Positions 1,546-53,192 of a stretch of 64,000 nt of DNA are shown here, piece by piece. A program made the translations under genes and the position numbers. The first letter of the stretch is position 1, and each line of letters begins with the position of its first letter. The notes below the pieces were generated by a model. It saw only the letters and a program-made list of their open reading frames with translations. It was not told the DNA's origin and did not search any database. This stretch comes from an uncultured Chloroflexia bacterium (GTDB lineage Bacteria > Chloroflexota > Limnocylindria > Limnocylindrales > CSP1-4): NCBI GenBank assembly GCA_963812745.1, contig CAWEWE010000005.1, forward strand, positions 4,813 through 68,812, read 5' to 3'.

Positions 1546-2736
1546 GTGAGGGGCGTGGCAGGAGGGGCCAGAGCACCGCCCGTGGCACGCACCGAGTTCC
1601 CGGCGAAGGCGACCCACGCGCAGACCCGAGCGCACAACGCGGCACTGGTCCTCCGCGCGCTCTACGACCTCGGGCCGATCTCGCGGGCCGACATCGCCAG
1701 ACTGACCGGCCTCACCCGGACCAGCGTCGGCGAACTCGTCAGCGACCTGGAGCAGGAAGGTCTCGCGGTCGATGTCGGGCGCGGGCCCAGCACCGGTGGC
1801 AAGCAACCGACCCTCGTCGCGCTGAACGCTGGTGCCCGGACCGTCATCACCCTCGACCTCGGCGAGCGCACCTTCACCGCGGCCCTCGCCAACTTGCGCG
1901 GCGAGATCGCCGCGCGCGTGAGCCGCGACCTCGACGGTCGCGACGGCGAGCAAGCGGTCGACGTCGTCCACGAGCTCATCGACGAAGTGCGCGCCGCGGC
2001 GACCAGCCCGATCCTCGGGATCGGCGTCGGCACCCCGGGCATCGTCGACCAGGCCGGCACGATCCGCTGGGCCGTCAGTCTCGACTGGCAGGACCTGCCG
2101 CTCGCTCGGATCCTCCAAGATCGTCATCAGCTCCCGACCGTCGTCGCCAACGACAGCCGCGCGGCCGCGTTCGCGACCTACCTGTTCTCCGGTGACGAGC
2201 GCCCGACCAACCTGGTCGTGATCAAGGTCGGTCGCGGCATCGGCGCCGGGCTCGTCCTCCGCGACCAGCTGTTCGGCGGTGACGGCGAGGCGGCCGGCGA
2301 GATCGGCCACGTCGTGGTCGACCCCGATGGCGTCGAGTGCCACTGCGGCCGCTTCGGCTGCCTCGAGACGGTCGCCAGCGCGCCGGCCGTGCTCCGCGCG
2401 AGCGGCGCCAAGAGCCTCGACGAGCTGGCTCAGAACGCGGCCCAAGGCGACGACCAAGCGCTCGGCGTCGTACGCGCCGCCGGCCGAGCCCTCGGCGGCG
2501 CGATCGCCCATCTCGTCGGCACGCTCGACGTCCGGCACATCACGCTGGTCGGCACCGTCACCGGCCTCGGCGAGCCATGGCTCGACGCGGTGCGCGACGA
2601 GGCGACGAGAAGGAGCCTGGCCGCCACCGGCCGCGAGACGACGATCGTCGATGGCGGGACCGGCGAGGACGTCACGCTCCTCGGCGCCTGCGCGCTGCTC
2701 CTCACCCGCGAGCTCGGCCTGACGGTGCACCGATGA
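1546..2736 (+). CDS. ROK family transcriptional regulator (NagC/Mlc-like)
   Basis: N-terminal HTH (LRALYDLGPISRADIARLTGLTRTSVGELV) followed by a ROK sugar-kinase fold with a CHCGRFGCLE zinc motif. The GTG start at 1546 is uncertain. Confidence 0.8.
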   Translation: MRGVAGGARAPPVARTEFPAKATHAQTRAHNAALVLRALYDLGPISRADIARLTGLTRTSVGELVSDLEQEGLAVDVGRGPSTGGKQPTLVALNAGARTVITLDLGERTFTAALANLRGEIAARVSRDLDGRDGEQAVDVVHELIDEVRAAATSPILGIGVGTPGIVDQAGTIRWAVSLDWQDLPLARILQDRHQLPTVVANDSRAAAFATYLFSGDERPTNLVVIKVGRGIGAGLVLRDQLFGGDGEAAGEIGHVVVDPDGVECHCGRFGCLETVASAPAVLRASGAKSLDELAQNAAQGDDQALGVVRAAGRALGGAIAHLVGTLDVRHITLVGTVTGLGEPWLDAVRDEATRRSLAATGRETTIVDGGTGEDVTLLGACALLLTRELGLTVHR

Positions 2737-3707
2737 TCGACGACCGCCGCGAAGAACTCGACGGCCACAAGCCCGGTCCGGTCGCCGGTATCGATATCGG
2801 CGGGACCAAGATCGCCACGCTCATCGTCGACGCCGACGGCGCCGTCCTCGGTCGCGCCACCCACGCCTCCTCCGTGGGTGACCAGGGCGGCGCCGTCCCG
2901 TCTATCGCCGCCTGCCTCGACGAGGCGCTGGCGGCCGCCGGACTCCAACGGCACGACCTCGCCGCGGTCGGTGTCGGTGTGCCCGGTCGGGTCGACCCGG
3001 CACGCGGTCACGTGACCCTCGCCGTCAACCTCGGCTGGACCGATTTCGCGCTGCGCGACGCCCTCCAGGTGGAGCTCGGCGTCCCGGTCGTGATCGAGAA
3101 CGACGTCCGCGCCGCGGCCATCGGCCTGCACGAGCGCCGGGTCGTCGGCGACACCGGTGATCTCGCCTACCTCGCGGTCGGCACCGGCATCGCGGCCGGC
3201 GTCGTGCTCGACGGACAGCTGCATCGCGGCGCCCGCGGTCTGGCCGGCGAGATCGGCCACGCCATCGTCGATGGCGATGGTCCGCGCTGCGTATGCGGCC
3301 AACAGGGCTGCCTCGAGGCCTTCGCCGCCGGCCCGTCGATCGCCAAGCGGGCGGGTCATGCCTCCGCCAAGGCGGTCTACGAAGCAGCGGCCGCCGGCGA
3401 CCAGGCCGCCACCGAACTGATCGACGACGTCGGGCGACGACTCGCCTGGGCGATCCACACGCTCGTCATGACCTACGACGTCCAACGCGTCGTGGTCGGT
3501 GGCGGCGTGTCCCATGCCGGTACGCCGTTCGAGGTCCCGCTGCGTCGGGAGCTCGCACGCTTGCGTGCCGCATCGGATCTCGCCGGGGAGCTGTTGCCGG
3601 CCGACATCGTCGATGTCCTGCCACCGGAAGCCGAAGCCGGCGCATGGGGCGCCGTCGCCGTGGCGAGGACCGCGTACCAGGGATCGGAGGTGGTGAGCCA
3701 CGCCTGA
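2733..3707 (+). CDS. ROK family sugar kinase (glucokinase / N-acetylglucosamine kinase-like)
   Basis: GIDIGGTKIATLIV and CVCGQQGCLEAF motifs. The ATG overlaps the upstream TGA stop (ATGA), suggesting translational coupling. Confidence 0.8.
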   Translation: MIDDRREELDGHKPGPVAGIDIGGTKIATLIVDADGAVLGRATHASSVGDQGGAVPSIAACLDEALAAAGLQRHDLAAVGVGVPGRVDPARGHVTLAVNLGWTDFALRDALQVELGVPVVIENDVRAAAIGLHERRVVGDTGDLAYLAVGTGIAAGVVLDGQLHRGARGLAGEIGHAIVDGDGPRCVCGQQGCLEAFAAGPSIAKRAGHASAKAVYEAAAAGDQAATELIDDVGRRLAWAIHTLVMTYDVQRVVVGGGVSHAGTPFEVPLRRELARLRAASDLAGELLPADIVDVLPPEAEAGAWGAVAVARTAYQGSEVVSHA

Positions 3708-3780
3708 CGCCAGCCAGCCGATCCCACGGATCAGTCGGAACCGCCACATCACTGGATGGAAGGAGCACCAAGGAGGAGCG

Positions 3781-5181
3781 ATGGACAAGAAGATGAAGCG
3801 GCATCTGGGGTTGCTGTTCGGGGTGATGCTCGTCATCACCGCGTGCACCGGCCAGACGCCGTCAACCGCACCGTCGGCCGCGCAGTCCGCGGCCCCGAGC
3901 GTCGATGCAAGCGAGGCACCGAGCACGCCGGCCGAGTCGGCGTCGCCGACCCCGCTGGCCGCCGACCCGGCCGAAGCCGTCATCCCCAACGTCGAGGCGA
4001 ACGCCGAGATCAGCGTCTGGACGTTCTGGCTCTCGCCGACGTTCGATGACTATCTGAAGGCCACGTTCGCCCGGTTCGAAGAGACCTACCCGGGCGTCAA
4101 GGTCAACTGGGAAGATCATCAGGCGACCTTCCAGGACGACCTCAAGAACTCGTTCGCCGCCGGCAACGCCCCGGACGTGATCAACCTGTCGGTCGGCGAG
4201 GGTTGGGTCTCCGACTACGCCACCCGCGACCTGCTGCTCGAGCTCGACAGCCGGGTGCCGCAGGAGGTCAAGGACATCTACTTCGAGGGCCTGTGGAAGG
4301 CTCAGAACGTCGACGGCAAGAACTTCCAGTTCCCGTACTACCAGGGCGTCGCCGTCGAACTGATCAACACCCGGCACTTCGAGGCCGCCGGTCTCGACCC
4401 CGCCGCATTCCCGAAGACCGTCCAAGAGCTGCCGGCCTTGTGCCAGACGCTCAAGGAGAAGGCGAACGTCGTCTGCGACCTGCGGATGACCGTCAACGAC
4501 CTCCTTGCCCAGATGGTCTACGAGGGCGACGTCAAGGTCCTGTCGGACGACGGCAATAGCTTCACGTTCGACTCGCCCGAGGCGGTCGCGTGGCTGCAGA
4601 TGTACGTCGATATGGTCGCGGCCGGCACGGTCGACAACACCGCGCTGACCACCAAGGACGACCGCGTCGGTCTCCTGATCTTCTCGGCCGGGCAGGCGCC
4701 GTTCTACCAGACCGGCCCGAACCTGATCCGCGAAGTCAAGGCCAACAACGCATCCCTCTACGAGGATCTCGCCGTCGTGCCGGCCCCGGTCGGCAAGTCG
4801 GGTGTCCTCGGCAAGGGCCTGATGGGCATGTCCGTCAAGGCCGACACCAAGTTCCCGAACGCATCGATCGCGCTGGCGCAGTTCATGACGAACCCGCGCA
4901 CGATGGTCGCGCTCTCCAAGATGTCGGCGGTCTATCCGTCGTCACCGAAGGCGTTCGAGGACCCCTACTTCAGCGCCTCGTCCCCGTTGATCGAGGACAG
5001 CGCCCGGGGTAGTGCCGGGGAAACCATCGCCAAGTACGCTGACATCGTGCCGACGGTCCCGAACAAGGCCGACGTCAACGCCATCGTCCTCACGGCTGTC
5101 GAGAAGGCGCTGTTCGGCGGCGTTGCCGCCCAGCAGGCGCTGACCGAGGCGGTCGCTGAGGCCAACAAACTGCTCGACTAG
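3781..5181 (+). CDS. Carbohydrate ABC transporter substrate-binding lipoprotein (family 1 SBP)
   Basis: Lipoprotein signal with a lipobox (LVITACTG), an AAGGAGG ribosome-binding site, and typical sugar-SBP length and composition. Confidence 0.8.
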   Translation: MDKKMKRHLGLLFGVMLVITACTGQTPSTAPSAAQSAAPSVDASEAPSTPAESASPTPLAADPAEAVIPNVEANAEISVWTFWLSPTFDDYLKATFARFEETYPGVKVNWEDHQATFQDDLKNSFAAGNAPDVINLSVGEGWVSDYATRDLLLELDSRVPQEVKDIYFEGLWKAQNVDGKNFQFPYYQGVAVELINTRHFEAAGLDPAAFPKTVQELPALCQTLKEKANVVCDLRMTVNDLLAQMVYEGDVKVLSDDGNSFTFDSPEAVAWLQMYVDMVAAGTVDNTALTTKDDRVGLLIFSAGQAPFYQTGPNLIREVKANNASLYEDLAVVPAPVGKSGVLGKGLMGMSVKADTKFPNASIALAQFMTNPRTMVALSKMSAVYPSSPKAFEDPYFSASSPLIEDSARGSAGETIAKYADIVPTVPNKADVNAIVLTAVEKALFGGVAAQQALTEAVAEANKLLD

Positions 5182-5251
5182 CAGCAGCTGTCACATTTCG
5201 GCCCGCCTCCGTTCCCCCAGGAGGCGGGCCGAACCCTTGCCAGGACCACTG

Positions 5252-6160
5252 ATGACTGCCACACGATCGAGCCGGATGATCGGCAGGCCGCGCGCCACGC
5301 CGTACCTGTTCCTGCTGCCCGCACTCGTCCTGCTCGCGATCTTCGTCTTCTACCCGATCGCCGCGGTCGTCTGGTTCAGCCTGACCGACTACGACATCGT
5401 CCGGCCGCCGGTCTTCGTCGGCCTCGAAAACTTCGTGGCGTTGCTCGACGACGACACGTTCAAGCTCGCGCTCGTGCACTCATTCGTGTACCTGCTGGTG
5501 ACGCCGATCCTGATCGTCCTGTCGATCTGCCTGGCCATCATCGTCAACCGCAAGCTGCGCGGGATCCACATCTACCGCGCGCTGTACTTCGTGCCCGCGG
5601 TCAGCGGGTCGATCGCCATCGGGCTGTCGTGGCGCTGGATGTTCGACCGGAGCGGGTTCATCAACTCGGTGCTTCAGTCTTGGGGCCTCATCGACGACCC
5701 GATCCAGTGGCTGGCGACGCCGGCCCTCGTGCTACCCATCGCGATGCTGCTGACGATCTGGGCCGGCATCGGCTACTACTCGGTGATCTTCCTGGCCGGG
5801 CTGCAGAACGTGCCCGACGAGCTGTACGACGCCGCCCGCATCGACGGCTGCACCGACTTCCAGAAGCACCGCTACGTCAGCATCCCCGCGCTGCGACCGC
5901 AGATCGTATTCGTGGCGGTCATCTCGAGCCTCGCCGCGCTCAAGGTCTTCGACGAGATCTACGTCCTGACCAACCGGACCGGCGGCATCCTCGATAGCGG
6001 CGTGACGATGGTCTTCTACCTGTGGGAGCAGGCGTTCGAGCGGTCGAATGCCGGGTACGCGTCGGCCATCGCGATCGTGCTGCTGGTCATCACGCTCGGC
6101 TTCTCGATCGTCAACGTGCGGCTGCTCGAGCGGGGCGGCGTGGGCGAGGGCGGTCGATGA
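5252..6160 (+). CDS. Carbohydrate ABC transporter permease (MalF/UgpA-like)
   Basis: Six-TM permease with an EAA-like loop (RIDGCTDFQKHRYVSIPALRP). The exact start is uncertain; ATG 5252 is the preferred candidate. Confidence 0.8.
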   Translation: MTATRSSRMIGRPRATPYLFLLPALVLLAIFVFYPIAAVVWFSLTDYDIVRPPVFVGLENFVALLDDDTFKLALVHSFVYLLVTPILIVLSICLAIIVNRKLRGIHIYRALYFVPAVSGSIAIGLSWRWMFDRSGFINSVLQSWGLIDDPIQWLATPALVLPIAMLLTIWAGIGYYSVIFLAGLQNVPDELYDAARIDGCTDFQKHRYVSIPALRPQIVFVAVISSLAALKVFDEIYVLTNRTGGILDSGVTMVFYLWEQAFERSNAGYASAIAIVLLVITLGFSIVNVRLLERGGVGEGGR

Positions 6161-7044
6161 CGTCGACGACCATGGCCGACATCCGGGTTGCCGAGCGAAC
6201 GCAGCGGGGCGCCGATCGGCGCAGTCGATGGCTGCGCGACGGCGTGTGGTACCTCGTCCTGACCGCGATCGCGGTCGTCACGGTGTTCCCGTTCGCCTGG
6301 ATGTTCCTGACGTCGATCAAGGGGCCGTCCGACCTCATCACCTCGGTGCCGCCCCAGTTCCTGCCGAACGACCCGACGATCGCGGCCTACGTGCGGGTGT
6401 GGGACAGCCTGCCGATCGCCTCGTTCTTCCTGAACTCGGCGACCGTCGCCGTGGCGACCGGGCTGCTCAACGTGCTGGTCGCCGCGATGGCCGCGTATCC
6501 GCTGGCGAAGATGCGCTTCGGCGGCCGCGACTTCGTCTTCTACCTGCTGCTCGCGACGCTGATCGTGCCGGCCCAGCTCACCTACATCCCGAGCTTCATC
6601 CTGGCCGTCAACGTCTTCCACTACTACGACTCGTTGCCCGCGCTGATCTTCCCGAACATCGTCAGCGCGTTCAACATCTTCCTGTTGCGGCAGGCCTTCC
6701 GGGGCGTGCCCGACGACCTCGTCGATGCGGCCCGTGTCGATGGCGCCGGGGAGTGGCGGATCTGGTGGTCGATCCTGCTGCCGATCGTCCGGCCGTCGCT
6801 GGCGGCGGTCGCGATCTTTACCTTCGTGACGTCGTGGAACGACTTCCTGTGGCCGTCGCTGATGCTCCACACGCCGGAGGGGATGACGCTGCCGGTGGGG
6901 CTCGCTGCGCTGCAGGGCTTCTTCTCGTCGGACTTCCGGTCGATCGCGGCGGGTGTGACGATGACGGTCGTGCCGATCCTGCTGTTCTTCATCGTCGTGC
7001 AGCGTTACTTCGTGCGCGGCCTGTCGGGTGCGGTCAAGGGGTGA
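6157..7044 (+). CDS. Carbohydrate ABC transporter permease (MalG/UgpE-like)
   Basis: The ATG overlaps the upstream stop (ATGA). The protein carries VDAARVDGAGEWRIWWSILLPIVRPS. Confidence 0.8.
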   Translation: MTSTTMADIRVAERTQRGADRRSRWLRDGVWYLVLTAIAVVTVFPFAWMFLTSIKGPSDLITSVPPQFLPNDPTIAAYVRVWDSLPIASFFLNSATVAVATGLLNVLVAAMAAYPLAKMRFGGRDFVFYLLLATLIVPAQLTYIPSFILAVNVFHYYDSLPALIFPNIVSAFNIFLLRQAFRGVPDDLVDAARVDGAGEWRIWWSILLPIVRPSLAAVAIFTFVTSWNDFLWPSLMLHTPEGMTLPVGLAALQGFFSSDFRSIAAGVTMTVVPILLFFIVVQRYFVRGLSGAVKG

Positions 7045-13423: not shown

Positions 13424-14158
13424 ATGGATGCCCTGCAGCGATGCGGCGCCACGTTCCGAGCGGTGCGCATCAAGCGCGGTTGGCGGCAGATCGACGTGGC
13501 AGTCCGTGCGCGGGTCGATCGGTCGGTCATCTCGAACATCGAGCGTGGCCATCTGGAGCATGTCGCGATCGGGACGCTACTGAATATCGCCCGGGTGCTC
13601 GAGATCCAGGTCGGGTTGACGACTCGATGGCGCGGCGGCGATCTGGATCGACTGATCTCCGCTCGACACTCCGGTTTCCACGAGGCCGTGGCCCGGTGGT
13701 TCGCGACGGATCTTCCCGATTGGATCCTGGCACCTGAGGTGTCGTACTCGATCTTCGGGGAGCGCGGTGTCATCGACATCCTTGCGTGGCACCCGACTCG
13801 CCGGGCACTGCTCGTGATCGAGCTCAAGACGGAGATCGTCGACGTGAACGACCTCGTCGGCTCGATGGATCGGCGGCAACGTCTCGCGCGGCAGATCGCT
13901 CGCGACCGGGGCTGGGAGCCGCGAACGGTGTCGGTATGGGTGTTGGTCGCGGACGGCCGGACCAATCGGACGCGGCTCGCGACGCATCGAGCCATGTTGC
14001 GGAACGCCTTCCCGGTCGATGGTCGCTCCATCATGGGGTGGCTTCGTCGGCCATCGACGGAGATCCGCGCGCTCTCTCTGTGGAGTCGAGGCGACACGGC
14101 CACGTCGCAGGGTGGGTTTGCCATCCGACACCGAGTGCGAGGGCCCCGCGGCGCCTAG
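13424..14158 (+). CDS. XRE-family HTH protein fused to a PD-(D/E)xK nuclease-like C-terminal domain
   Basis: HTH (WRQIDVAVRARVDRSVISNIERG). Downstream lies an E...GVIDILAWHP...LLVIELKTEI (E / D / E-x-K) arrangement. The start could instead be GTG 13400. Confidence 0.55.
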   Translation: MDALQRCGATFRAVRIKRGWRQIDVAVRARVDRSVISNIERGHLEHVAIGTLLNIARVLEIQVGLTTRWRGGDLDRLISARHSGFHEAVARWFATDLPDWILAPEVSYSIFGERGVIDILAWHPTRRALLVIELKTEIVDVNDLVGSMDRRQRLARQIARDRGWEPRTVSVWVLVADGRTNRTRLATHRAMLRNAFPVDGRSIMGWLRRPSTEIRALSLWSRGDTATSQGGFAIRHRVRGPRGA

Positions 14159-34599: not shown

Positions 34600-35010
34600 G
34601 TGGACGACCACATCCTCGACGACGAGCCCCAGCCGGAGTCGGCATACGACCTGCTCCAGCGCGGACAGGCGCTGCTCGCCTCGCGGCACCATGCCCAGGC
34701 GGCGATCGTGCTCGAGCGCGCCGACCGGCTCGAGCCCGGCAAGGCATCGATCCTCGAGGCCCTCGGGCGGGCGTACTTCAACTCCGGGCAGCCCGAGGCC
34801 GCCAGGGCGACGTTCGAGCGCGTCCTCGAGCTCGACCCGTCCGCGCCGTACGCGCACTTCGCGCTCGGTCAGAGCCTGAAGCGGCTCGGCCGTCGCGAGG
34901 AGGCCGGCACGCACCTGCGGATGGCCTGTGCGCTCAGCCCGGAGTCGTCCCTCTATCGCGACGCGCTGGCCCGGCTCGGTGATGCGGCGCGACCCAGGCG
35001 AGCGCGTTAG
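34600..35010 (+). CDS. TPR-repeat protein
   Basis: Three TPR-like repeats (ALGRAYFNSGQPEAA...); GTG start. Confidence 0.55.
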   Translation: MDDHILDDEPQPESAYDLLQRGQALLASRHHAQAAIVLERADRLEPGKASILEALGRAYFNSGQPEAARATFERVLELDPSAPYAHFALGQSLKRLGRREEAGTHLRMACALSPESSLYRDALARLGDAARPRRAR

Positions 35011-35632
35011 CCCGCCGGATCGGCGTCCATCACCCGCGCGAGCCAGAACAAGCCGACGATCGATTTGGCGTCGCGGATCTCGCCGCGTTCGGCGGCCGCG
35101 ACCGCGTCGCGCCAGGGTCGCCATTCGAGGATGAGCCGCTCGTCCTCGTCGGGCCCGAGCCGCCCATCTTCCGCCGGCGACGTGAGATCGGTCGCGAGAT
35201 ACAGGTGCATCAGCTCGTCGGTGAAGCCGGGCGCCGAGTAGAAGGCACCGAGCTTCCGCCACGTCCCGGCGCGCACCCCGGTCTCCTCCTCCAGCTCGCG
35301 CCGGGCCGCGACCGCCGGGTCCTCTTTCGAACCGTCCGCCGCGATGTCGAGGCCGCCGGCCGGGATCTCGAGCAGGGCGTCGTCGGCGGCGAGTCGCCAC
35401 TGGCGGACGAGCGCCACGCGACCCTCGGCATCGAGCGCCACGATCGCCACGGCGCCGGGATGGCCCGCGAAGTCGCGGACGGCCCGAGAGCCATCGGCCC
35501 GTTCGACGGTGTCGACCCGGAACTCCAGGAACGCGCCGCGATGGAGGACCCGCCGATCGACGACGCGCTCGCGCAGATCGGCCCCGGAGTCGTCCTCCGG
35601 GGCCGTCGGCTGCTCGGTCGGACGCTGCTCGC

Positions 35633-35636
<4 letters not shown>
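35007..35636 (-). CDS. NUDIX hydrolase (ADP-ribose pyrophosphatase-like)
   Basis: Nudix box (AARRELEEETGV). N-terminal homology (VLHRGAFLEFRVDTVERADG...GHPGAV) continues in-frame upstream of the annotated GTG at 35450 with no canonical start. A CTG overlapping the upstream TGA is the only candidate. Confidence 0.6.
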
Positions 35637-36742
<1,106 letters not shown>

Positions 36743-36915
36743 GGGCGCAGCCTCCGGCCTGTTCCACCATCGCGGGTCCATGCATCCAGTCGCCGAGGCG
36801 ATGTCCCGCGCGGGAGCGGGACGCGGACGGACCCCGTACGTGGCGACGCAGGGTCTCGCATCGTACGGTCGGGCGGGGTCGGGCGCAACGGTCAAGGAGA
36901 GGTGCCCCGGCTGCG

Positions 36916-37088
36916 CTTGGAACGCCCCATGTTCCAAGCGGCGAAGGAACCGACGAGAACCGGGGTACTTCAAGCCGTCGTTCGCCATTTGGAACCCGTA
37001 GATGTTCCAAATGGCGTCTGGGTGGGTGGAATCGCGCCCCATCTTCGTCAGTTGGAACATCGTGATGTTCCAGCCGCGCCGCTGGAAC
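36916..37088. promoter_or_regulatory. Array of three palindromic operator-like sites (TTGGAAC-N7/8-GTTCCAA) plus a half-site in a divergent intergenic region
   Basis: Full sites at 36916-36938, 36986-37013 (perfect 10-bp arms CATTTGGAAC/GTTCCAAATG) and 37052-37072, with a half-site at 37083-37088. They stand out as AT-rich in GC-rich DNA. Confidence 0.6.
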
Positions 37089-37098
37089 CGTGTTCGCG

Positions 37099-37923
37099 AT
37101 GCCGTCGTACCATCGACCGACGATGGAGCACACGATCGACGTCACCCGCCGCTCGTTCCTGATCCACGCGGGCCGCGGCACGATCGCTCTGGCGGTCCTC
37201 AGCGTCGCAGGTTGTGGTCCGTCCGCCGTGGCCTCGGCACTGCCGTCGGATGGACAGCCGTCCACATCGCCTGAGCCGTCTCCTGGTGAGTCGGGGGCCG
37301 GGGCGTCAAGTCCGCCGCCGTCCGCATCGACTGGCGGCGTGGTTTGGGAGCGCGTAAACCTCGGCTTCGTGTCGGCCTACATCCTCGCCCGCGGAGGCGA
37401 AGCGGCGATCGTGGATACAGGAGTGGCGGGCAAACGCGACGCGATCGGCGATGTCCTGGCCGCGGCGGGCCTCGCCTGGAACGCGGTCGGGCACGTGATC
37501 CTCACCCACAAGCACGGCGACCATGCCGGCAGCATCGCCAGCGTCCTGCAGGCGGCCGCCGACGCGAGCGTCTATGCGGGCGAGGCCGACATCCCGGGCA
37601 TCGATTCGCCCAAGCCGATCACCGCCGTCGCCGATGGCGATACGGTGTTCGGCATGCGGATCGTCGCTACGCCCGGTCACACGGCCGGCCACGTCGCCGT
37701 GCTGGACGAGGGAGCTCGCATCCTGGTCGCCGGCGATGCGCTCGGGACGGTCGGTGGCACGCTCGCCGGCTCGAACCCGTCCTTCACCGAGGATGCCGCG
37801 GCGGCCAACGCGTCGGTGGCCAAGCTGGGCGCGCTCGAATTCGACGTCCTGCTCCCCGGTCATGGCGAGCCGATCCTCGAAGGGGCATCCACCCAGGTCG
37901 CGGCGCTGGCCGCCGCCAGCTGA
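37099..37923 (+). CDS. MBL-fold metallo-hydrolase, Tat-exported lipoprotein
   Basis: Twin-arginine signal RRSFLIHAGRGTIALAVLSVAGC with a lipobox, an HKHGDHAG metal-binding motif, and GH/GD motifs. Confidence 0.7.
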   Translation: MPSYHRPTMEHTIDVTRRSFLIHAGRGTIALAVLSVAGCGPSAVASALPSDGQPSTSPEPSPGESGAGASSPPPSASTGGVVWERVNLGFVSAYILARGGEAAIVDTGVAGKRDAIGDVLAAAGLAWNAVGHVILTHKHGDHAGSIASVLQAAADASVYAGEADIPGIDSPKPITAVADGDTVFGMRIVATPGHTAGHVAVLDEGARILVAGDALGTVGGTLAGSNPSFTEDAAAANASVAKLGALEFDVLLPGHGEPILEGASTQVAALAAAS

Positions 37924-37931
37924 GGAGACGC

Positions 37932-38865
37932 ATGCAGACCCAGCCCGCTCTCCGTGTCGCGCGCGACCGCTTCCACCTCGCCTGGGATCCGGCGATCCCG
38001 GCGATCGAGACCGTCGACGACGGCGCCGTCGTCGAGTTCGACATGCTCGACGCCTCGGGCGGCCAGCTGACCGCGAGCTCGACGGTCGATGACCTCGCGA
38101 AGCTCGACTTCGACCGCGTCGACCAGGTCAACGGGCCGATCGCGGTCCGCGGCGCCGAGCCCGGTGACACGCTCCAGATCGACTTGCTCGAGTTCGAGCC
38201 AGCCGATTGGGGCTGGACCGCGAGCATCCCCGGTTTCGGCCTGCTGGCGGATCAGTTCCCCGATCCGTACCTCCGGATCACGATGCGTGCCGGGTGCCGG
38301 CGAGCGCGCCGAGTTCCTGCCCGGGGTCCGCGTACCGATCGTCCCGTTCTGCGGCGAGGTGGGCGTGGCGCCGGAGACCGGCCCGCGGTCGACCATCCCG
38401 CCCGACCTCCACGGCGGGAACATGGACACGCGCCATCTCATCGCCGGCTCGACGCTGTTCCTGCCCGTGTTCCACGACGGCGCACGGCTGTCGATGGGCG
38501 ACGGCCACGCCGCGCAGGGCGACGGCGAGGTATGCGGCACCGCCATCGAGACACCGATGCGCGCGGTCGTCCGCCTGACCGTGCGCAAGGACCTCCACCT
38601 GACCGGTCCCGAGTTCCTGAGTGCCGACGTCGAGGCGACGCCGACCGGTCGCCGCTACGCGACCGACGGCATCGGCCCGGACCTCAACGGCGCGGCACGC
38701 GATGCCGTGAGCCGGATGATCGACTGGCTCGGGCGCGAGCACGGCCTCGCCCCGATCGACGCCTATCTGCTGACGAGCGTCGCGATCGACCTACGGATCA
38801 GTGAGATCGTCGACATGCCGAACGTCGTCGTCACGGCGCACTGCCCGCTGTCGCTCTTCGATTAG
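37932..38865 (+). CDS. Acetamidase/formamidase family protein (FmdA_AmdA), one frameshift
   Basis: The ATG follows a GAGGAG ribosome-binding site. The two halves sit in different frames, changing near 38290; the C-terminal half carries HGGNMD and DGEVCGTAIE motifs. Confidence 0.65.
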
Positions 38866-40370: not shown

Positions 40371-40436
40371 AGAAGACCCTCCTCTCCCTCAGCCCCCTCC
40401 GTCCCCCTCCGGGCGCCGCTACTATGCCGCCACGCC

Positions 40437-41845
40437 ATGCAGACGGCAATGGAATCCGCGAGATCGATCGACTCGCCACGGCAGGCCGCCGATACCGTGG
40501 CCCGGCTGGCGGGACTCGGTGCCGACGCGCTGTGGGTCGTCTACCACGACTACGCCGGCCTCGGTCGGGCGAAGGCGGTGCCGAAGGGTCGGTTCGAGGA
40601 GGTCGCGCGGGACGGCGTCACCTTCGCGATGGCGAACTGGGACCTCGCGATCACCGATGAGCAGGTCCCGCACCCGGAGTTCGGGGCGGATTCCGGGGAT
40701 TTCCGCGCCGTCCCCGATCCCGCGGCGCTGGTCGCACTCCCGCATCGGCCCGGCGTGGCGCAGGCGTTCGCGAACCTGACCGACGATGCCGGTGTCGCGT
40801 GGCCCGGCGATCCGCGGGCGCTCCTCGCCGCCCAGGTCGAACGCCTGGAGCAGCTCGGCGTCGCTGTGCAGGTGGCCTTCGAGGCGGAGTTCGTGCTGGT
40901 ATCGGGCGCGGACCCGGCGGCGCTCCACGCCGACAGCGGGCGCATGTTCGCTGTCGAGGGGCTCGATGCGCAGTGGCCATTGGGTGCCCGCATCCTGGCC
41001 GATCTCGACGCGACCGGCATCGCCGTCCACCAGTTCGCCAAGGAGTACGGCCCGGGCCAGTTCGAGGTGAGCCTGCTGCCCACGCAGCCCCTGGCCGCCG
41101 CCGACCGGTACCTGCTCGCCCGCCAGCTCATCCGCCGCTGGCGCGGGAGGCCGGCGCGACGGCGTCGTTCATGCCGAAGCCGTACGCCGACCTGCCGGGC
41201 AACGGCCTCCACGTCCACCTCGGGCTGGCTCGTGCCGACGATCCGGGGACCGATCTGATCGCCGATGCTGACGACCCGGACCGGCTCGCCGCGACGGCCG
41301 GGCCGCCGATCGCCGGGCTGCTCGCGCACGCGGCCGGCCAGTCCGCGCTGTCCTCGCCGACACCGAACTCCTACAAGCGGCTGTTGCCGGGCTCGTGGGC
41401 GCCTGCCCATGTGTGCTGGGCGATGGGCAACCGGTCTGCGCTCGTCCGGGTGCCCGGTCGAGGGGCCGGCCGACACCTCGAGGTCCGTGGCGGGGATGCC
41501 GCGATGAACCCGTACCTCCACCTGGCCGGCCTGCTCGCCGCGATCGCCGACGGCGTGGAACGGGAGCTGGAGCTCCCGGCCGAGGCACGCGTCGACGTCG
41601 GCCACCTGAGCGACGACGACGCGCAGGACGCCGGGTTCGCGCGACTGCCGGGCGACCTCGCGGCGGCCCTGGATGCGTTCGAGGCCGACGACGTGTTGGG
41701 GGCGGCCGTCGGATCGATCGTCGCGCGGCACTATGTCGATGTGAAGCGGTTCGAGTGGGCGATGTACCTGGAACGTTCCGGGATGGACGCGGCGTCGACC
41801 GAGGTTTCCGACTGGGAACGCGACACCTACTTCGGATGTCTGTAG
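40437..41845 (+). CDS. Glutamine synthetase family protein (type III/GlnA-like gamma-glutamyl-amine ligase), one frameshift
   Basis: Glutamine synthetase catalytic motifs NSYKRL and GNRSALVRVP. An N-terminal beta-grasp domain lies in an adjacent frame, with the shift near 41145. Confidence 0.7.
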
Positions 41846-48079: not shown

Positions 48080-49200
48080 TCACTCCGAGTCGGGTCGGTT
48101 CTCCGAGCCGGCGTGCGTCGGCGCCGTCCACGGTGCGACGGACCGCAGGAGGCGGACCGCGGCGCTGGTGTGGTCGATCGTCGCGGCGACATGCTCACGA
48201 TCCGGCTCGGGCTCCGGCGTCGGGGAGGGCCAGGTCTGGTCGGCCGTCGCCGCTGGATCCATGACCGGTACCGGCTCGGTGGTCGTGCCGGACGCTTCGT
48301 CGGTGACGGTGGCTGCGGGCGACTCGATCGCCGTCATCCCGTCGCCCTCGCCGGTGCCGTTCGTCGCGTCGACGTCCGCCGTCGGCAGAACGAACGCCGC
48401 CGCCGGCGACTCGGCGTCGGCGACCACGTCGGCGGGCTCGACCGGCGGATCGTTCGGACTGTCGTCGATGACGACGGCCTCCGCGACGGCTGCGGTCTCG
48501 GCCGCAGCCTCGGTCGCGACCGCGGCCTGGCGTCCGGCTCGGCCGGCTGCTCCGGCTCGGCCGGCTGCTCCGGCTCGACGAACATCGCAACGGCGCTGGC
48601 CCTGGCCGTGGCACGGACCTGGTCGAGATCGGGCCCCGCCGGCAGTGCCTCGGCGCGGGCCACGATGGCGGCCGGGTCGCCTGCCTCGGAAAGCTCAGCG
48701 AAGAATCGATCGAGCGTCGTGCCGTAGTCGGCCACGGCCGCGTCGACGCCTTCGATCTCCTTCTCGATGATCGCATCGTGCTGCCTGAGGTAGTCGTCGA
48801 GGCTGGAGCGGCGGTCGGCGATCCGCTGGTCCGCTTCGGAGCGGACGCGATCCACCTCGCTCTTCGCCCATTCCTCGATGTGGTCGACGTCTTCCTCGGC
48901 GAGCCGCTTCAGCTCCTCGGTCTCGATCGCGGCGCGTGCGCGGACCTTGTCGATGTGCGCGGCCGCGTCGTCGGCGACACGGGCCGCGATCGTCTCGCGC
49001 TCACGCTCGGCGGTGGCGCGCATCGCGTTGGCAAGCTCGGACAGGAAACCTGGCCGTAGCCCGCCGCTGTCGATGCGGTGCGGCTGCTCGGCGGTAGGCG
49101 GATCGGCCTCGGTCACCCCGGGCGATTCCGTCGTCCCGACCACCGACGTGCCATTGACATGACTCGCTTCCGGGATCATCGGATCGTCGTTCTGGTCCAT
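48080..49200 (-). CDS. Hypothetical alpha-helical/coiled-coil protein with acidic Pro/Glu-rich C-terminal tail (paralog A), one frameshift
   Basis: Starts at MDQNDD. A conserved roughly 170-aa helical core is shared with the gene at 52281-53192. An 18-bp tandem repeat (EPEQPA x2) sits at the frameshift near 48545. Confidence 0.5.
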
Positions 49201-51224: not shown

Positions 51225-51932
51225 CTAGCGGCCGAACAGCGGGATGCGCGCGCCGGTGATCGCGGCCGCGTCGTCGGACGCGAGGAAGCGGAAGACGGCA
51301 GCGATCTCCTCGGGCGTGGTCCATGACGTCTTCTTGGGGTCGGTCGTCCGCTCCCTCGCCTCGTCGATCGCCTTGACGATTACGAGGTTCACGGTCACGC
51401 CAGTGTCGGCCGTCTCGCGCGCGAGCGTGCCCAGCAGCGACTCCTCGGCCGACTTGCCGATCGCGTAGGGCGCCAGCTTCGGAGCCGGCTCGGCGGCGGG
51501 CGGCGCGGAGACCGCCATCACCCGACCCCAGCCGCGCTCGACCATGCCGGGCACCACGGCCTGCGCGACATGCAGGGTCGTCCACAGGTGCTGGTCGAGC
51601 ATCTCCGCCACGTCGGCGGGATCGAGCTCGGCGACAGGCGTCCCGCCGGACCAGCCGCCGACGAGGTGGACCAGGACGTCGATGCGGCCCAGGGCGGCTT
51701 CCGTCGCGGTCAATGCGTCCCGGGTGGCGTCACGGTCACGCAGATCGACCAGGACGGGCATCCAGCGATCGGCGTCGAGGCCGAGATCGGTGGCCAGGTC
51801 GCGCAAGGGGGCTTCTTCGGTGCCGGCCAATGCGAGGCGGGCGCCCGCATCGGCGAAGGTTCGCGCCGTGACGCGGCCGAGCTCACCGGTCGCGCCGGTG
51901 ATGAGCACCACTCGATCGGTCGTCGAGGCCAC
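51225..51932 (-). CDS. SDR family NAD(P)-dependent oxidoreductase
   Basis: Rossmann VVLITGATGELG, catalytic YxxxK (YAIGK), GTG start at 51932. Confidence 0.75.
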   Translation of the reverse strand: MASTTDRVVLITGATGELGRVTARTFADAGARLALAGTEEAPLRDLATDLGLDADRWMPVLVDLRDRDATRDALTATEAALGRIDVLVHLVGGWSGGTPVAELDPADVAEMLDQHLWTTLHVAQAVVPGMVERGWGRVMAVSAPPAAEPAPKLAPYAIGKSAEESLLGTLARETADTGVTVNLVIVKAIDEARERTTDPKKTSWTTPEEIAAVFRFLASDDAAAITGARIPLFGR

Positions 51933-52031: not shown

Positions 52032-52187
52032 TTTGGAACGTGACATGTTACGAACGGGGGCTGAGCGGCCGAAGAGCGAGTCAACTTGCCCGCCCAGTCG
52101 TGGTATGGAACATGTGCAGGTTCCAAACGACGAAGGAGAGGCCGATCAAGGCGATCTCCTTCGTCGGACGTAACGCGTGATGTTCCA
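52032..52187. promoter_or_regulatory. Second array of the TGGAAC-N7/8-GTTCCA palindromic operator-like sites
   Basis: Sites at 52032-52054 (TTTGGAAC-N7-GTTACGAA), 52104-52127 (TATGGAAC-N8-GTTCCAAA) and 52169-52187 (CGTAAC-N7-GTTCCA), upstream of the SDR gene. Confidence 0.55.
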
Positions 52188-52280: not shown

Positions 52281-53192
52281 TCAGGCTCGGTGCGCTTCGC
52301 TGTCCTTCGCCTGCGGGGTTTCGGAGGCTGCCGACCACGGCACGAGCGCGCGGAAGAAGCGGAACGCGCCGCTCGGTTGGGCGTTCGTCTCGGTCGCCTC
52401 TTCGTCCTCGGGTACCTGGAGCGGGTCCACGGGCAGCGGCGGATCGGCGGCCCGTCCGTTGGCCTCGGGATCCATCACCGCGACCGGGGCCTCGACGGGC
52501 GCTTCCGGGGTCTCGACGGGCGCTTCCGGCGCCGGCGCGGCGGTCGCGGGCACGTCGGGCTCAGCGGACGCCACGGCCTCGCCGGCCGCCACGACGTCAT
52601 CGAGCTGGGCCGCAACCACGTCATCCACGTCGGGCGATCGATCGTCGGCCCAATCGTACGCCGCCACCGCACGGGCCCGGGCCTGGGCACGGACCTCATC
52701 GAGGTCGGGTGGTGTCGGGACCGAGTCGGCGCGGCGGGCGATCTCGCCCGGGTCACCCGTGACGATGAGGCTCTCGACGAAGTGCGCCAGGGTCGCTGAG
52801 TAGTCGGCGACCGCGGACTCGAGACACGCGATCTCGGTGTCGATGATCGCATCGTGTCGCACCAGGTACGAGGCCATGTCCGCCCGCCGCTCCTTGGCCC
52901 GGCGTCCGGCCTCACGGCGGATCCGCTTGATCTCCCTGGCGGCCCAGTCCCCGATCGCCCGGACGTCGTCGTCGGCCAACCGGTGGAATTCGGCGGCTTC
53001 GATCGCCGCGCGCGCCCGAGCCTTCTCGACATGGTCCTTCGCGTCGGCCGCGACCATCTCGTCGATGCGGACGCGTTCGCGCACGAGCGCCCCGTGCATC
53101 GCGTGTGCCAATCCTGCGAGGAGTGGCGGAGTCGGCCCCGCGGGCGCTTGTCCCTCGGCCGTCCCAGCCTCTCCGGAAGCGATGTGGTCCAT
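52281..53192 (-). CDS. Hypothetical alpha-helical/coiled-coil protein with acidic tail (paralog B)
   Basis: Starts at MDHIASG. Its helical core aligns residue-for-residue with the gene at 48080-49200. Confidence 0.5.
   Translation of the reverse strand: MDHIASGEAGTAEGQAPAGPTPPLLAGLAHAMHGALVRERVRIDEMVAADAKDHVEKARARAAIEAAEFHRLADDDVRAIGDWAAREIKRIRREAGRRAKERRADMASYLVRHDAIIDTEIACLESAVADYSATLAHFVESLIVTGDPGEIARRADSVPTPPDLDEVRAQARARAVAAYDWADDRSPDVDDVVAAQLDDVVAAGEAVASAEPDVPATAAPAPEAPVETPEAPVEAPVAVMDPEANGRAADPPLPVDPLQVPEDEEATETNAQPSGAFRFFRALVPWSAASETPQAKDSEAHRA

Follow-up and report, generated by a model that had tools for sequence, protein, structure and literature searches.

A dispersed repeat with a helically phased palindrome triplet in Candidatus Limnocylindria (Chloroflexota)

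The module and its two copies in the window

A palindrome array lies between divergent genes in a 64,000-nucleotide stretch of DNA (hereafter, the window) from an uncultured member of the Limnocylindria, phylum Chloroflexota (GenBank assembly GCA_963812745.1, contig CAWEWE010000005.1, positions 4,813 to 68,812 of the forward strand). The array is one copy of a dispersed repeat, referred to here as the module, the conserved core of which is a triplet of palindromes in phase with the DNA helix. A preceding reading of the window, made by a model from the letters alone (the sequence-only reading), had reported palindromes of the type TGGAAC-N7/8-GTTCCA in two intergenic regions and proposed that they are operators of a dimeric repressor. 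The palindromes were recovered at the reported positions: four sites are perfect (36918-36936 with N7; 36990-37009, 37053-37072 and 52106-52125 with N8) and two are degenerate, with GTTACG/CGTAAC half-sites (52034-52052 and 52169-52187). No perfect site occurred in 100 dinucleotide-preserving shuffles. The sites and linkers of the two copies, modules A and B, are as follows.

36913-37076, minus strand: module A, a complete three-palindrome copy; polarity (63-bp linker first) is minus, at 125 bits (nhmmer) on the minus versus 86 on the plus strand
36918-36936: site A1, TGGAAC-N7-GTTCCA, with perfect 10-nt arms (36914-36923/36931-36940)
36937-36989: long linker A1-A2, site centres 72.5 bp or about 7 helical turns apart, linker ends conserved in the family
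36990-37009: site A2, TGGAAC-N8-GTTCCA, with perfect 13-nt arms (36983-36995/37004-37016)
37010-37052: short linker A2-A3, site centres 63 bp or about 6 helical turns apart
37053-37072: site A3, TGGAACAT-CGTG-ATGTTCCA (N8)
37083-37088: lone TGGAAC half-site, outside the repeat-family consensus, local to the msiK/MBL locus and reading GGGAAC at the related loci L003 and L007
52029-52189, minus strand: module B, the second copy, of the 'B-type' subfamily; 111 bits (nhmmer) on the minus versus 63 on the plus strand
52034-52052: site B1, TGGAAC-N7-GTTACG, with a variant inner half-site
52106-52125: site B2, TGGAAC-N8-GTTCCA, 72.5 bp from B1
52169-52187: site B3, CGTAAC-N7-GTTCCA, 62.5 bp from B2; an inverted copy of B1 (19 nt, 79% complementary)

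The centre-to-centre spacing, about 72.5 and then about 63 bp, is common to both loci, and the two regions can be aligned in register, on the same strand and through parts of the linkers. Module A aligns in register not only with module B but also with orthologous copies at L003/L015 and L007. The description of the two intergenic regions as unrelated is thus to be corrected, since both hold copies of one family of about 160 bp with homologous linkers. One copy had been credited with perfect 10-bp arms; this applies to A1, and the arms of A2 are even longer. The half-copy noted next to module A is present, but it does not belong to the repeat family. B-type modules have GTTACG and CGTAAC as the inner half-sites of their two outer palindromes, mirrored across the module. 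Site 1 therefore recurs in inverted form as site 3, and neither is self-palindromic. Members of this subfamily were found at three non-orthologous loci in three genomes (the window at 52034-52187, L009 at 2117-2270 and L008 at 2235-2387), and the outer sites match as mirror copies at 18 of 19 positions in L009 and L008. The short linker of module B also contains a perfect 12-bp inverted repeat, CGACGAAGGAGA (52128-52139) and TCTCCTTCGTCG (52155-52166), because a GAAGGAG/CTCCTTC motif sits at both linker ends.

The genes flanking the two modules, identified by Pfam together with the gene calls of ENA, are those that the sequence-only reading had described.

35007-35450, minus strand: NUDIX gene, left of module A
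35633-36742, minus strand: MalK/MsiK-type ABC ATPase gene, left of module A
37123-37923, plus strand: Tat-signal MBL hydrolase gene, right of module A
37932-38865, plus strand: FmdA_AmdA amidase gene, right of module A
51225-51932, minus strand: SDR gene, whose start module B adjoins
52281-53099, minus strand: gene for a 272-aa protein with no Pfam match, whose stop module B adjoins

No regulator gene adjoins module A or module B, as had also been stated; only two helix-turn-helix proteins were detected in the window, namely, a ROK regulator at 1582-2736 and an XRE protein at 13424-14158. A malK-III RNA motif (Rfam RF03009; 36740-36853, minus strand) makes up the 5' leader of the gene for the MsiK-like ATPase; the motif scores 62.8 bits against a gathering score of 50 and is separate from the palindrome array.

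A lineage-specific repeat family

The module was found to be a lineage-specific repeat of Candidatus Limnocylindria. A scan of GTDB, with one genome per species and two perfect sites 40-56 bp apart as the criterion, returned 26 loci, 18 of them in 10 Limnocylindria-type metagenome-assembled genomes (MAGs) and 8 from other phyla. By this stringent pattern one MAG had six loci, the maximum, and another had four. At every Limnocylindria locus the sites come in threes, at times as two adjacent threes (L008, L012, L013, L018 and L030), with spacings of 62-63 and 72-73 bp. Among 55 contigs from JGI metagenomes, 31 high-GC soil contigs carried the same three-site module, together with a 51-bp spacing class. 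The 8 two-site loci from other phyla (Acidobacteria gp6, REP-like loci of Burkholderiales, Hyphomicrobiaceae and Blautia) were judged unrelated on account of their different spacing and context. The matches in Burkholderiales (L024 and L033) are long palindromes of the repetitive extragenic palindromic (REP) kind, GTAGGGTGGAAC...GTTCCACCCTAC, and four Acidobacteria gp6 genomes (L019, L028, L029 and L032) share a conserved site pair 75 bp apart, probably within a coding region.

When 18 oriented modules were aligned, the full length of about 160 bp proved to be one sequence family, with conserved linker ends that include GTTCCAAnnGGCGAAGGAG and GCTCAGCCGCCGnTTGGAAC. Masking of the half-sites still leaves the non-orthologous copies of one genome 65-75% identical, and the msiK/MBL copies group by orthology. 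The similarity begins and ends at the outer palindromes, and neither a target-site duplication nor a target motif was seen in seven aligned copies and the two copies of the window. An nhmmer profile built from the 18 modules detected exactly two copies in the window and a few further ones in the flanks of other loci. The copy number is probably a few tens per genome, as estimated from about 400 kb of sampled sequence that was not selected by the motif, a small sample that includes no whole genome.

Synteny of the msiK/MBL region is retained at three related loci, L003 (= L015), L007 and L005. L003/L015 and L007, whose MBL proteins are 69% and 79% identical to that of the window, have the three sites in register, the half-sites being conserved and the spacers and linkers diverged. 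L005 lacks a block of some 200 bp that includes the entire array, and the malK-III leader, a conserved stretch upstream of the leader and the sequence directly before the MBL start codon are all kept; the array therefore behaves as a unit that is either present or absent. The sequence-only reading had proposed conservation upstream of orthologous genes as a check on its claim; two of the three relatives keep the array and one lacks it. Four relatives, L005 among them, have a malK-III leader that is nearly invariant. A second presence/absence difference distinguishes L018 (300-1120) from L026 (6250-6990), where the flanks are about 98% identical and L026 lacks a 254-bp unit, comprising one module and about 75 bp of flank, that has the same 17-mer, GGAACCTCACATGTTCC, at both of its boundaries. 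This indel is consistent with ordinary recombination between neighbouring modules.

Conserved half-sites and helical phasing

Half-sites of the module are maintained far better than the sequence between them. In the 18 modules, 628 of 648 half-site positions (about 97%) match TGGAAC/GTTCCA, whereas between distant copies only 36-50 of 96 positions in the linkers and 9-12 of 23-24 in the spacers agree, which argues that selection acts on the half-sites. The same holds at orthologous loci when the species share about 83% DNA identity. Orthologous copies have kept 35-36 of 36 half-site positions as against 57-76 of 96 linker positions; for the msiK/MBL copies, the linker count is 61-76 of 96. Among 124 distinct sites, the left and right flanks show mirror-image base preferences out to at least 14 nt, and the complementarity of the two flanks within a site equals the expectation from random re-pairing at all 14 positions. 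In an RNAalifold prediction for the 18 modules, the covariation term was -0.05 and only the invariant core hairpins, three in number, appeared. Mirrored preferences without co-variation of the arms fit a symmetric protein on duplex DNA rather than a selected hairpin of RNA or single-stranded DNA. In this respect, the earlier proposal of a target for a two-fold-symmetric DNA-binding protein gains support from the invariant half-sites, the variable spacers, the arms and the phasing described next.

The distances between neighbouring site centres fall into discrete classes. Of 103 distinct distances, 16 measure 51-51.5 bp, 39 measure 61.5-64 bp, 43 measure 71-74 bp and 2 measure 83-84 bp, with strays at 48.5, 116.5 and 119 bp; the ranges between the classes are empty. 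The searches accepted 59.5-77 bp for one pair of sites and set no limit on the other pair. With the period set to 10.25-10.5 bp, the resultant reaches 0.87-0.89 and the phase is near zero; the distances therefore correspond to whole helical turns, from 5 to 8. Linker lengths are retained even where linker identity is near random (L026 compared with the rest). Inside the modules, no promoter-like or U-tract terminator signals were found. The module also lacks any Rfam similarity, both at the gathering threshold and at E <= 10; the malK-III motif, which lies outside it, is the sole real match nearby.

Placement relative to genes

About 24 distinct positions could be assigned with respect to the flanking genes: 4 divergent, 11 co-directional and 6-9 convergent. 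At three of the convergent positions both flanking genes are supported by Pfam (L009b, DUF1684/DUF922; L010, DinB_2/Nuc_deoxyrib_tr; L017, Amidohydro_1/ADH). At two others, L063 and L040, the module occupies most of a gap of about 200 bp, which leaves little room for a promoter. The module was also found inside an operon for CoA-transferase subunits A and B. The neighbours are functionally unrelated. They include tig (trigger factor), rny (RNase Y), thrS-infC, cysS, CoA-transferase A/B and ispH, and further genes for extracytoplasmic function (ECF) sigma/anti-sigma pairs, SnoaL, ACT, ArsR-AHSA1, DinB, nucleoside deoxyribosyltransferase, amidohydrolase and alcohol dehydrogenase. The family is strictly intergenic; many copies start 9-26 bp past a stop codon, and the distance to the next start codon ranges from about 60 to 400 bp. 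Neither a recurrent transposase nor a recurrent recombinase was seen beside the copies.

The polarity of a module can be measured, with nhmmer scores of the two strands differing by 20-45 bits. At co-directional loci it agrees with the flanking genes four times and opposes them five times. Along contig CAVSKY010000001.1 (L009, L016, L011, L021 and L025), the polarity is plus at 26, 31, 495, 545 and 549 kb and minus at 777 and 1181 kb; along CAWCEC010000003.1 (L010, L023 and L017), it is minus, minus and plus at 251, 457 and 684 kb. One switch per contig is suggestive of a link to replication direction, which is not significant with so few loci. The GC skew of the 8-kb loci was uninformative, and polarity showed no link to the majority strand of the genes.

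In one soil lineage from JGI rhizosphere samples (L041, L056, L057, L069 and L073), modules precede ECF sigma/anti-sigma operons by about 115-125 bp. ECF promoters usually have GGAAC as their -35 element, and a CGTC-type -10 element is expected 16-17 nt downstream. An ECF-sigma promoter was rejected, as the flank consensus has no CGTC-type -10 at that distance, and the ECF sigma neighbours in some soil contigs are probably coincidental.

Interpretation

The module most likely serves as a genome-wide protein-binding platform rather than as a dedicated operator of its neighbours, a reading in which we place moderate confidence. Each module presents three dyad sites, TTGGAAC-N7/8-GTTCCAA, joined by two linkers, with centres 5, 6, 7 or rarely 8 helical turns apart. 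The selection on half-sites, the arms without co-variation and the quantised spacing together suggest that three dimers of one putative sequence-specific protein would bind duplex DNA on one face of the helix. The bound dimers may contact each other in a complex that spans about 150-200 bp, assembles cooperatively and bends the DNA. The role of the module would be generic, either architectural and insulating or one of global regulation, and the msiK gene, the MBL/formamidase operon and the SDR gene would be affected only as any neighbour would be. The module may have been copied around the genome and then held by selection on half-sites and spacing.

A more specific version, which we put forward only tentatively and consider less probable than its opposite, is that the modules constitute a system of chromosome architecture or insulation, in which a Limnocylindria protein would sit as a trimer of dimers on the few tens of phased pads in each genome. 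Such a complex might wrap or bend intergenic DNA over about 150 bp, which could, for example, prevent read-through from one gene into the next or organize topology, and the pads would have spread by module copying.

Several observations weigh against a protein-binding platform. Single strands of the module fold better than shuffled sequences (z = -3.6 and -4.5), and no DNA-binding gene family recurs beside the modules, in the window or at the other loci. The phasing and fixed linker lengths may descend in part from a few ancestral linker types without selection, and sites that vary between N7 and N8 are not what a rigid dimer usually binds. The estimate of a few tens of copies rests on the small sample mentioned above. 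Copying of whole modules, subfamilies within genomes, the absence of the module from L005, the difference between L018 and L026, and the occurrence between convergent genes are all expected of a selfish element as well. The two readings are not mutually exclusive, as a copied module can carry sites that the host uses; the integration host factor (IHF) sites within BIME-1 or Correia elements are examples of copied repeats with sites used by a host protein.

That the module is purely selfish, i.e., a non-autonomous mobile repeat of the REP/BIME, REPIN, PATE or miniature inverted-repeat transposable element (MITE) kind with no host function, appears unlikely to us, although this is the strongest of the alternatives. 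Its palindromes would then be recognized, probably as single-strand hairpins, by a REP-associated tyrosine transposase (RAYT) or an IS200/IS605-type transposase encoded elsewhere. Much of the distribution agrees with such an origin: the family is multi-copy with subfamilies, its paralogues within a genome are as similar as orthologues or more so, and its copies are strictly intergenic, often directly past stop codons and also in convergent gaps, with presence/absence differences among relatives. Module doublets occur, single strands fold well, and the outer sites act as terminal inverted repeats, being mirror copies of each other in the B-type subfamily. The single polarity switch on two contigs is what replication-coupled single-strand transposition predicts, but, as noted, it is not significant. 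On the other hand, the copies have no target-site duplication or conserved target, and the window and about 90 loci (about 600 kb) showed neither a transposase nor a RAYT. The arms show no compensatory change, and half-site conservation of about 97% amid decay, at orthologous loci too, points to host selection. An enzyme that recognizes hairpins would also have no need of linkers quantised by helical turns, and the number of sites is fixed at three.

A transcribed RNA element, such as a stabilizer in 3' untranslated regions, a set of terminator hairpins or a multi-copy small RNA, is distinctly improbable. Many copies lie directly past stop codons, and each module can form three hairpins of 6-8 bp and folds better than shuffles, as such an element would. 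However, covariation is lacking, orientation relative to the genes is unbiased (four and five cases, as given above), U-tract terminators and promoter-like signals are absent, and no Rfam family resembles the module even at E = 10. A hairpin would furthermore not need strict invariance of the stem sequence.

Slightly less probable still is the proposal of the sequence-only reading, by which the palindromes serve a dimeric repressor as operators, its specific regulon (msiK/NUDIX, MBL/formamidase and SDR) joining sugar import to amide and nitrogen catabolism. The dyad symmetry and the phasing are compatible with operators, the array is kept at the orthologous msiK/MBL loci of L003/L015 and L007, and each window copy lies upstream of at least one gene. 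Nevertheless, modules occupy convergent positions (L009b, L010/L011b and L017, and also L063, L040 and L022) and the interior of the CoA-transferase operon, the functions of neighbours are unrelated, and distances to start codons vary widely. Convergent positions, an orientation independent of transcription and unrelated neighbours argue together against a pathway-specific operator. Whole modules are homologous, not the sites alone, and L005 has kept its leader, the upstream sequence and the sequence before MBL without a module. In addition, the control region of the ROK operon of the window (1582-7044) contains no TGGAAC palindrome, and on this ground the ROK regulator is probably not the binder. 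The palindromes had been distinguished from the LexA box, and rightly so. An SOS box is of the GAAC-N4-GTTC type and occurs as a single box upstream of recA, lexA or uvr genes; here 9-10 bp separate GAAC from GTTC, the sites are grouped in threes and no SOS genes are among the neighbours. The source, whose MBL protein has homologues named Candidatus Limnocylindrales or Chloroflexota, is a member of the Chloroflexota (Limnocylindria) and not an actinobacterium, so the actinobacterial operators to which the palindromes had been compared are the wrong reference. An origin from phage operators or stoperators was rejected as well, since a scan of viral contigs gave only unrelated low-GC tandem repeats.

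We regard as very improbable that these are sites of site-specific recombination, whether lox/dif-like or a res-like array of three subsites, on which a tyrosine or serine recombinase would act. The perfect 13-bp arms of A2 around an 8-bp spacer, the three subsites with position-specific spacer lengths and the 254-bp indel bounded by identical site sequence would suit recombination. However, tens of dispersed copies show stable synteny and no adjacent recombinase gene, spacers that differ between sites would block strand exchange, and ordinary repeat recombination explains the indel equally well. Degenerate orphan mini-arrays of clustered regularly interspaced short palindromic repeats (CRISPR) share repeats of about 20-36 bp and a period of 51-73 bp with the module, but this possibility is negligible, being effectively refuted by the homology between loci of the linkers, i.e., the would-be spacers, and opposed by a repeat interior (the 7-8-bp spacer) that varies within an array, a number fixed at three and the absence of cas genes.

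Comparison with known systems

Among described systems, the module seems functionally closest to phased cooperative operator arrays, and in its distribution closest to clusters of bacterial interspersed mosaic elements (BIMEs) or REPs and to MITE-like repeats. Phased operator arrays, such as lambda OR1-3/OL1-3, DeoR, GalR/LacI loops and ComK K-boxes (1-3 turns), likewise have multiple dyad sites for dimers at whole-turn centre distances, which implies contact between the proteins along one side of the helix. However, those arrays stand at promoters of a defined regulon and arose locally, whereas the module has been copied with homologous linkers and lies in promoter-less convergent gaps and beside unrelated genes.

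BIMEs and REP clusters of enterobacteria (BIME-1 with an IHF site, BIME-2 with gyrase sites, and REP325) are also dispersed extragenic palindromic units with few discrete linker lengths, are common past stop codons and between convergent genes, and are partly conserved at orthologous positions. BIMEs serve host DNA proteins as binding platforms, as we propose for the module. REPs differ in their GC-rich imperfect stems, hairpins recognized by RAYT with a GTAG signature, variable unit number and hundreds of copies. The module, in contrast, has invariant TGGAAC hexamers, a spacer varying between 7 and 8 bp, arms without co-variation, three (or 2 x 3) sites at integral helical-turn spacing, tens of copies and no RAYT in the window and about 90 loci. 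MITE-type repeats, including Neisseria Correia elements with an IHF site, ERIC/IRU, the pneumococcal BOX A-B-C and RUP, resemble the module in a size of about 100-200 bp, inverted-repeat ends, dispersal between genes, presence/absence polymorphism and subfamilies. Unlike them, the module has no target-site duplication, AT-rich target or known parent insertion sequence, and it contains three equal phased palindromes.

The site families that organize chromosomes, Noc NBS, SlmA SBS, MatP matS and ParB parS, provide a parallel in tens of palindromic copies per genome for a dimeric, architectural protein, as proposed here for the module. They are, however, single sites, often within genes, with neither a repeated module nor triplets, and their sequences are unrelated to it. 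The res sites of Tn3/gamma-delta comprise three inverted-repeat subsites in about 120-160 bp, each with its own half-site spacer length, as in the module; a res site is single and lies beside a resolvase gene on a transposon, whereas the module occurs in tens of chromosomal copies with no nearby recombinase. The module thus falls outside operators with a regulon because of its convergent and incoherent neighbours, outside REPs because it lacks compensatory arms and no RAYT was seen in about 90 loci, outside MITEs because it lacks target-site duplications, outside known non-coding RNAs because it lacks covariation, consistent polarity and an Rfam match, and outside CRISPR because its linkers are homologous. 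A phased three-palindrome dispersed repeat appears to be undescribed, and a survey of the literature on the motif and on palindromes of Limnocylindria found nothing relevant.

Other features of the window

Beyond the modules, the region 1582-7044 comprises the ROK regulator, a second (kinase-like) ROK gene, a sugar ABC binding protein and two permeases, with no ATPase gene alongside; these sugar ABC genes could depend on the MsiK-like ATPase 30 kb away. A paralogue of the 272-aa protein encoded upstream of module B, 49% identical to it, lies 3 kb off (48334-49200), beyond the genes for phosphoglucomutase and SDR. The 1.48-Mb contig_23150 of ENA ERZ25039588 matches the window at 99.57% identity. 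Compared with that contig, the window has an additional base at 38284 that interrupts the FmdA/AmdA gene (37932-38865); near 41135 a base is missing, apparently splitting a glutamine-synthetase-like gene (40429-41845). These differences represent either strain variation or assembly errors. The RNA motif described above places malK-III in a Chloroflexota (Limnocylindria) genome.

Implications

Limnocylindria are abundant uncultured Chloroflexota of soil and freshwater, and we know of nothing published on their DNA-binding proteins or genome organization. Invariant palindromes set at exactly 5-8 turns amid drifting sequence offer a clean and testable signature of a cooperative protein-DNA complex, and the module can be used as bait to identify a candidate binder by DNA pull-down or DNA affinity purification sequencing, for example, with TTGGAACATGTGATGTTCCAA. 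For annotators, palindrome arrays upstream of genes in these genomes are no evidence of pathway-specific regulation. Were it purely selfish, the module would define a repeat family that is new, unusual in its phased architecture and without an obvious transposase. Should it instead prove to be part of a system of chromosome architecture, it would represent a new kind of sequence-specific nucleoid element in Limnocylindria, beyond a regulon or a mere selfish repeat.

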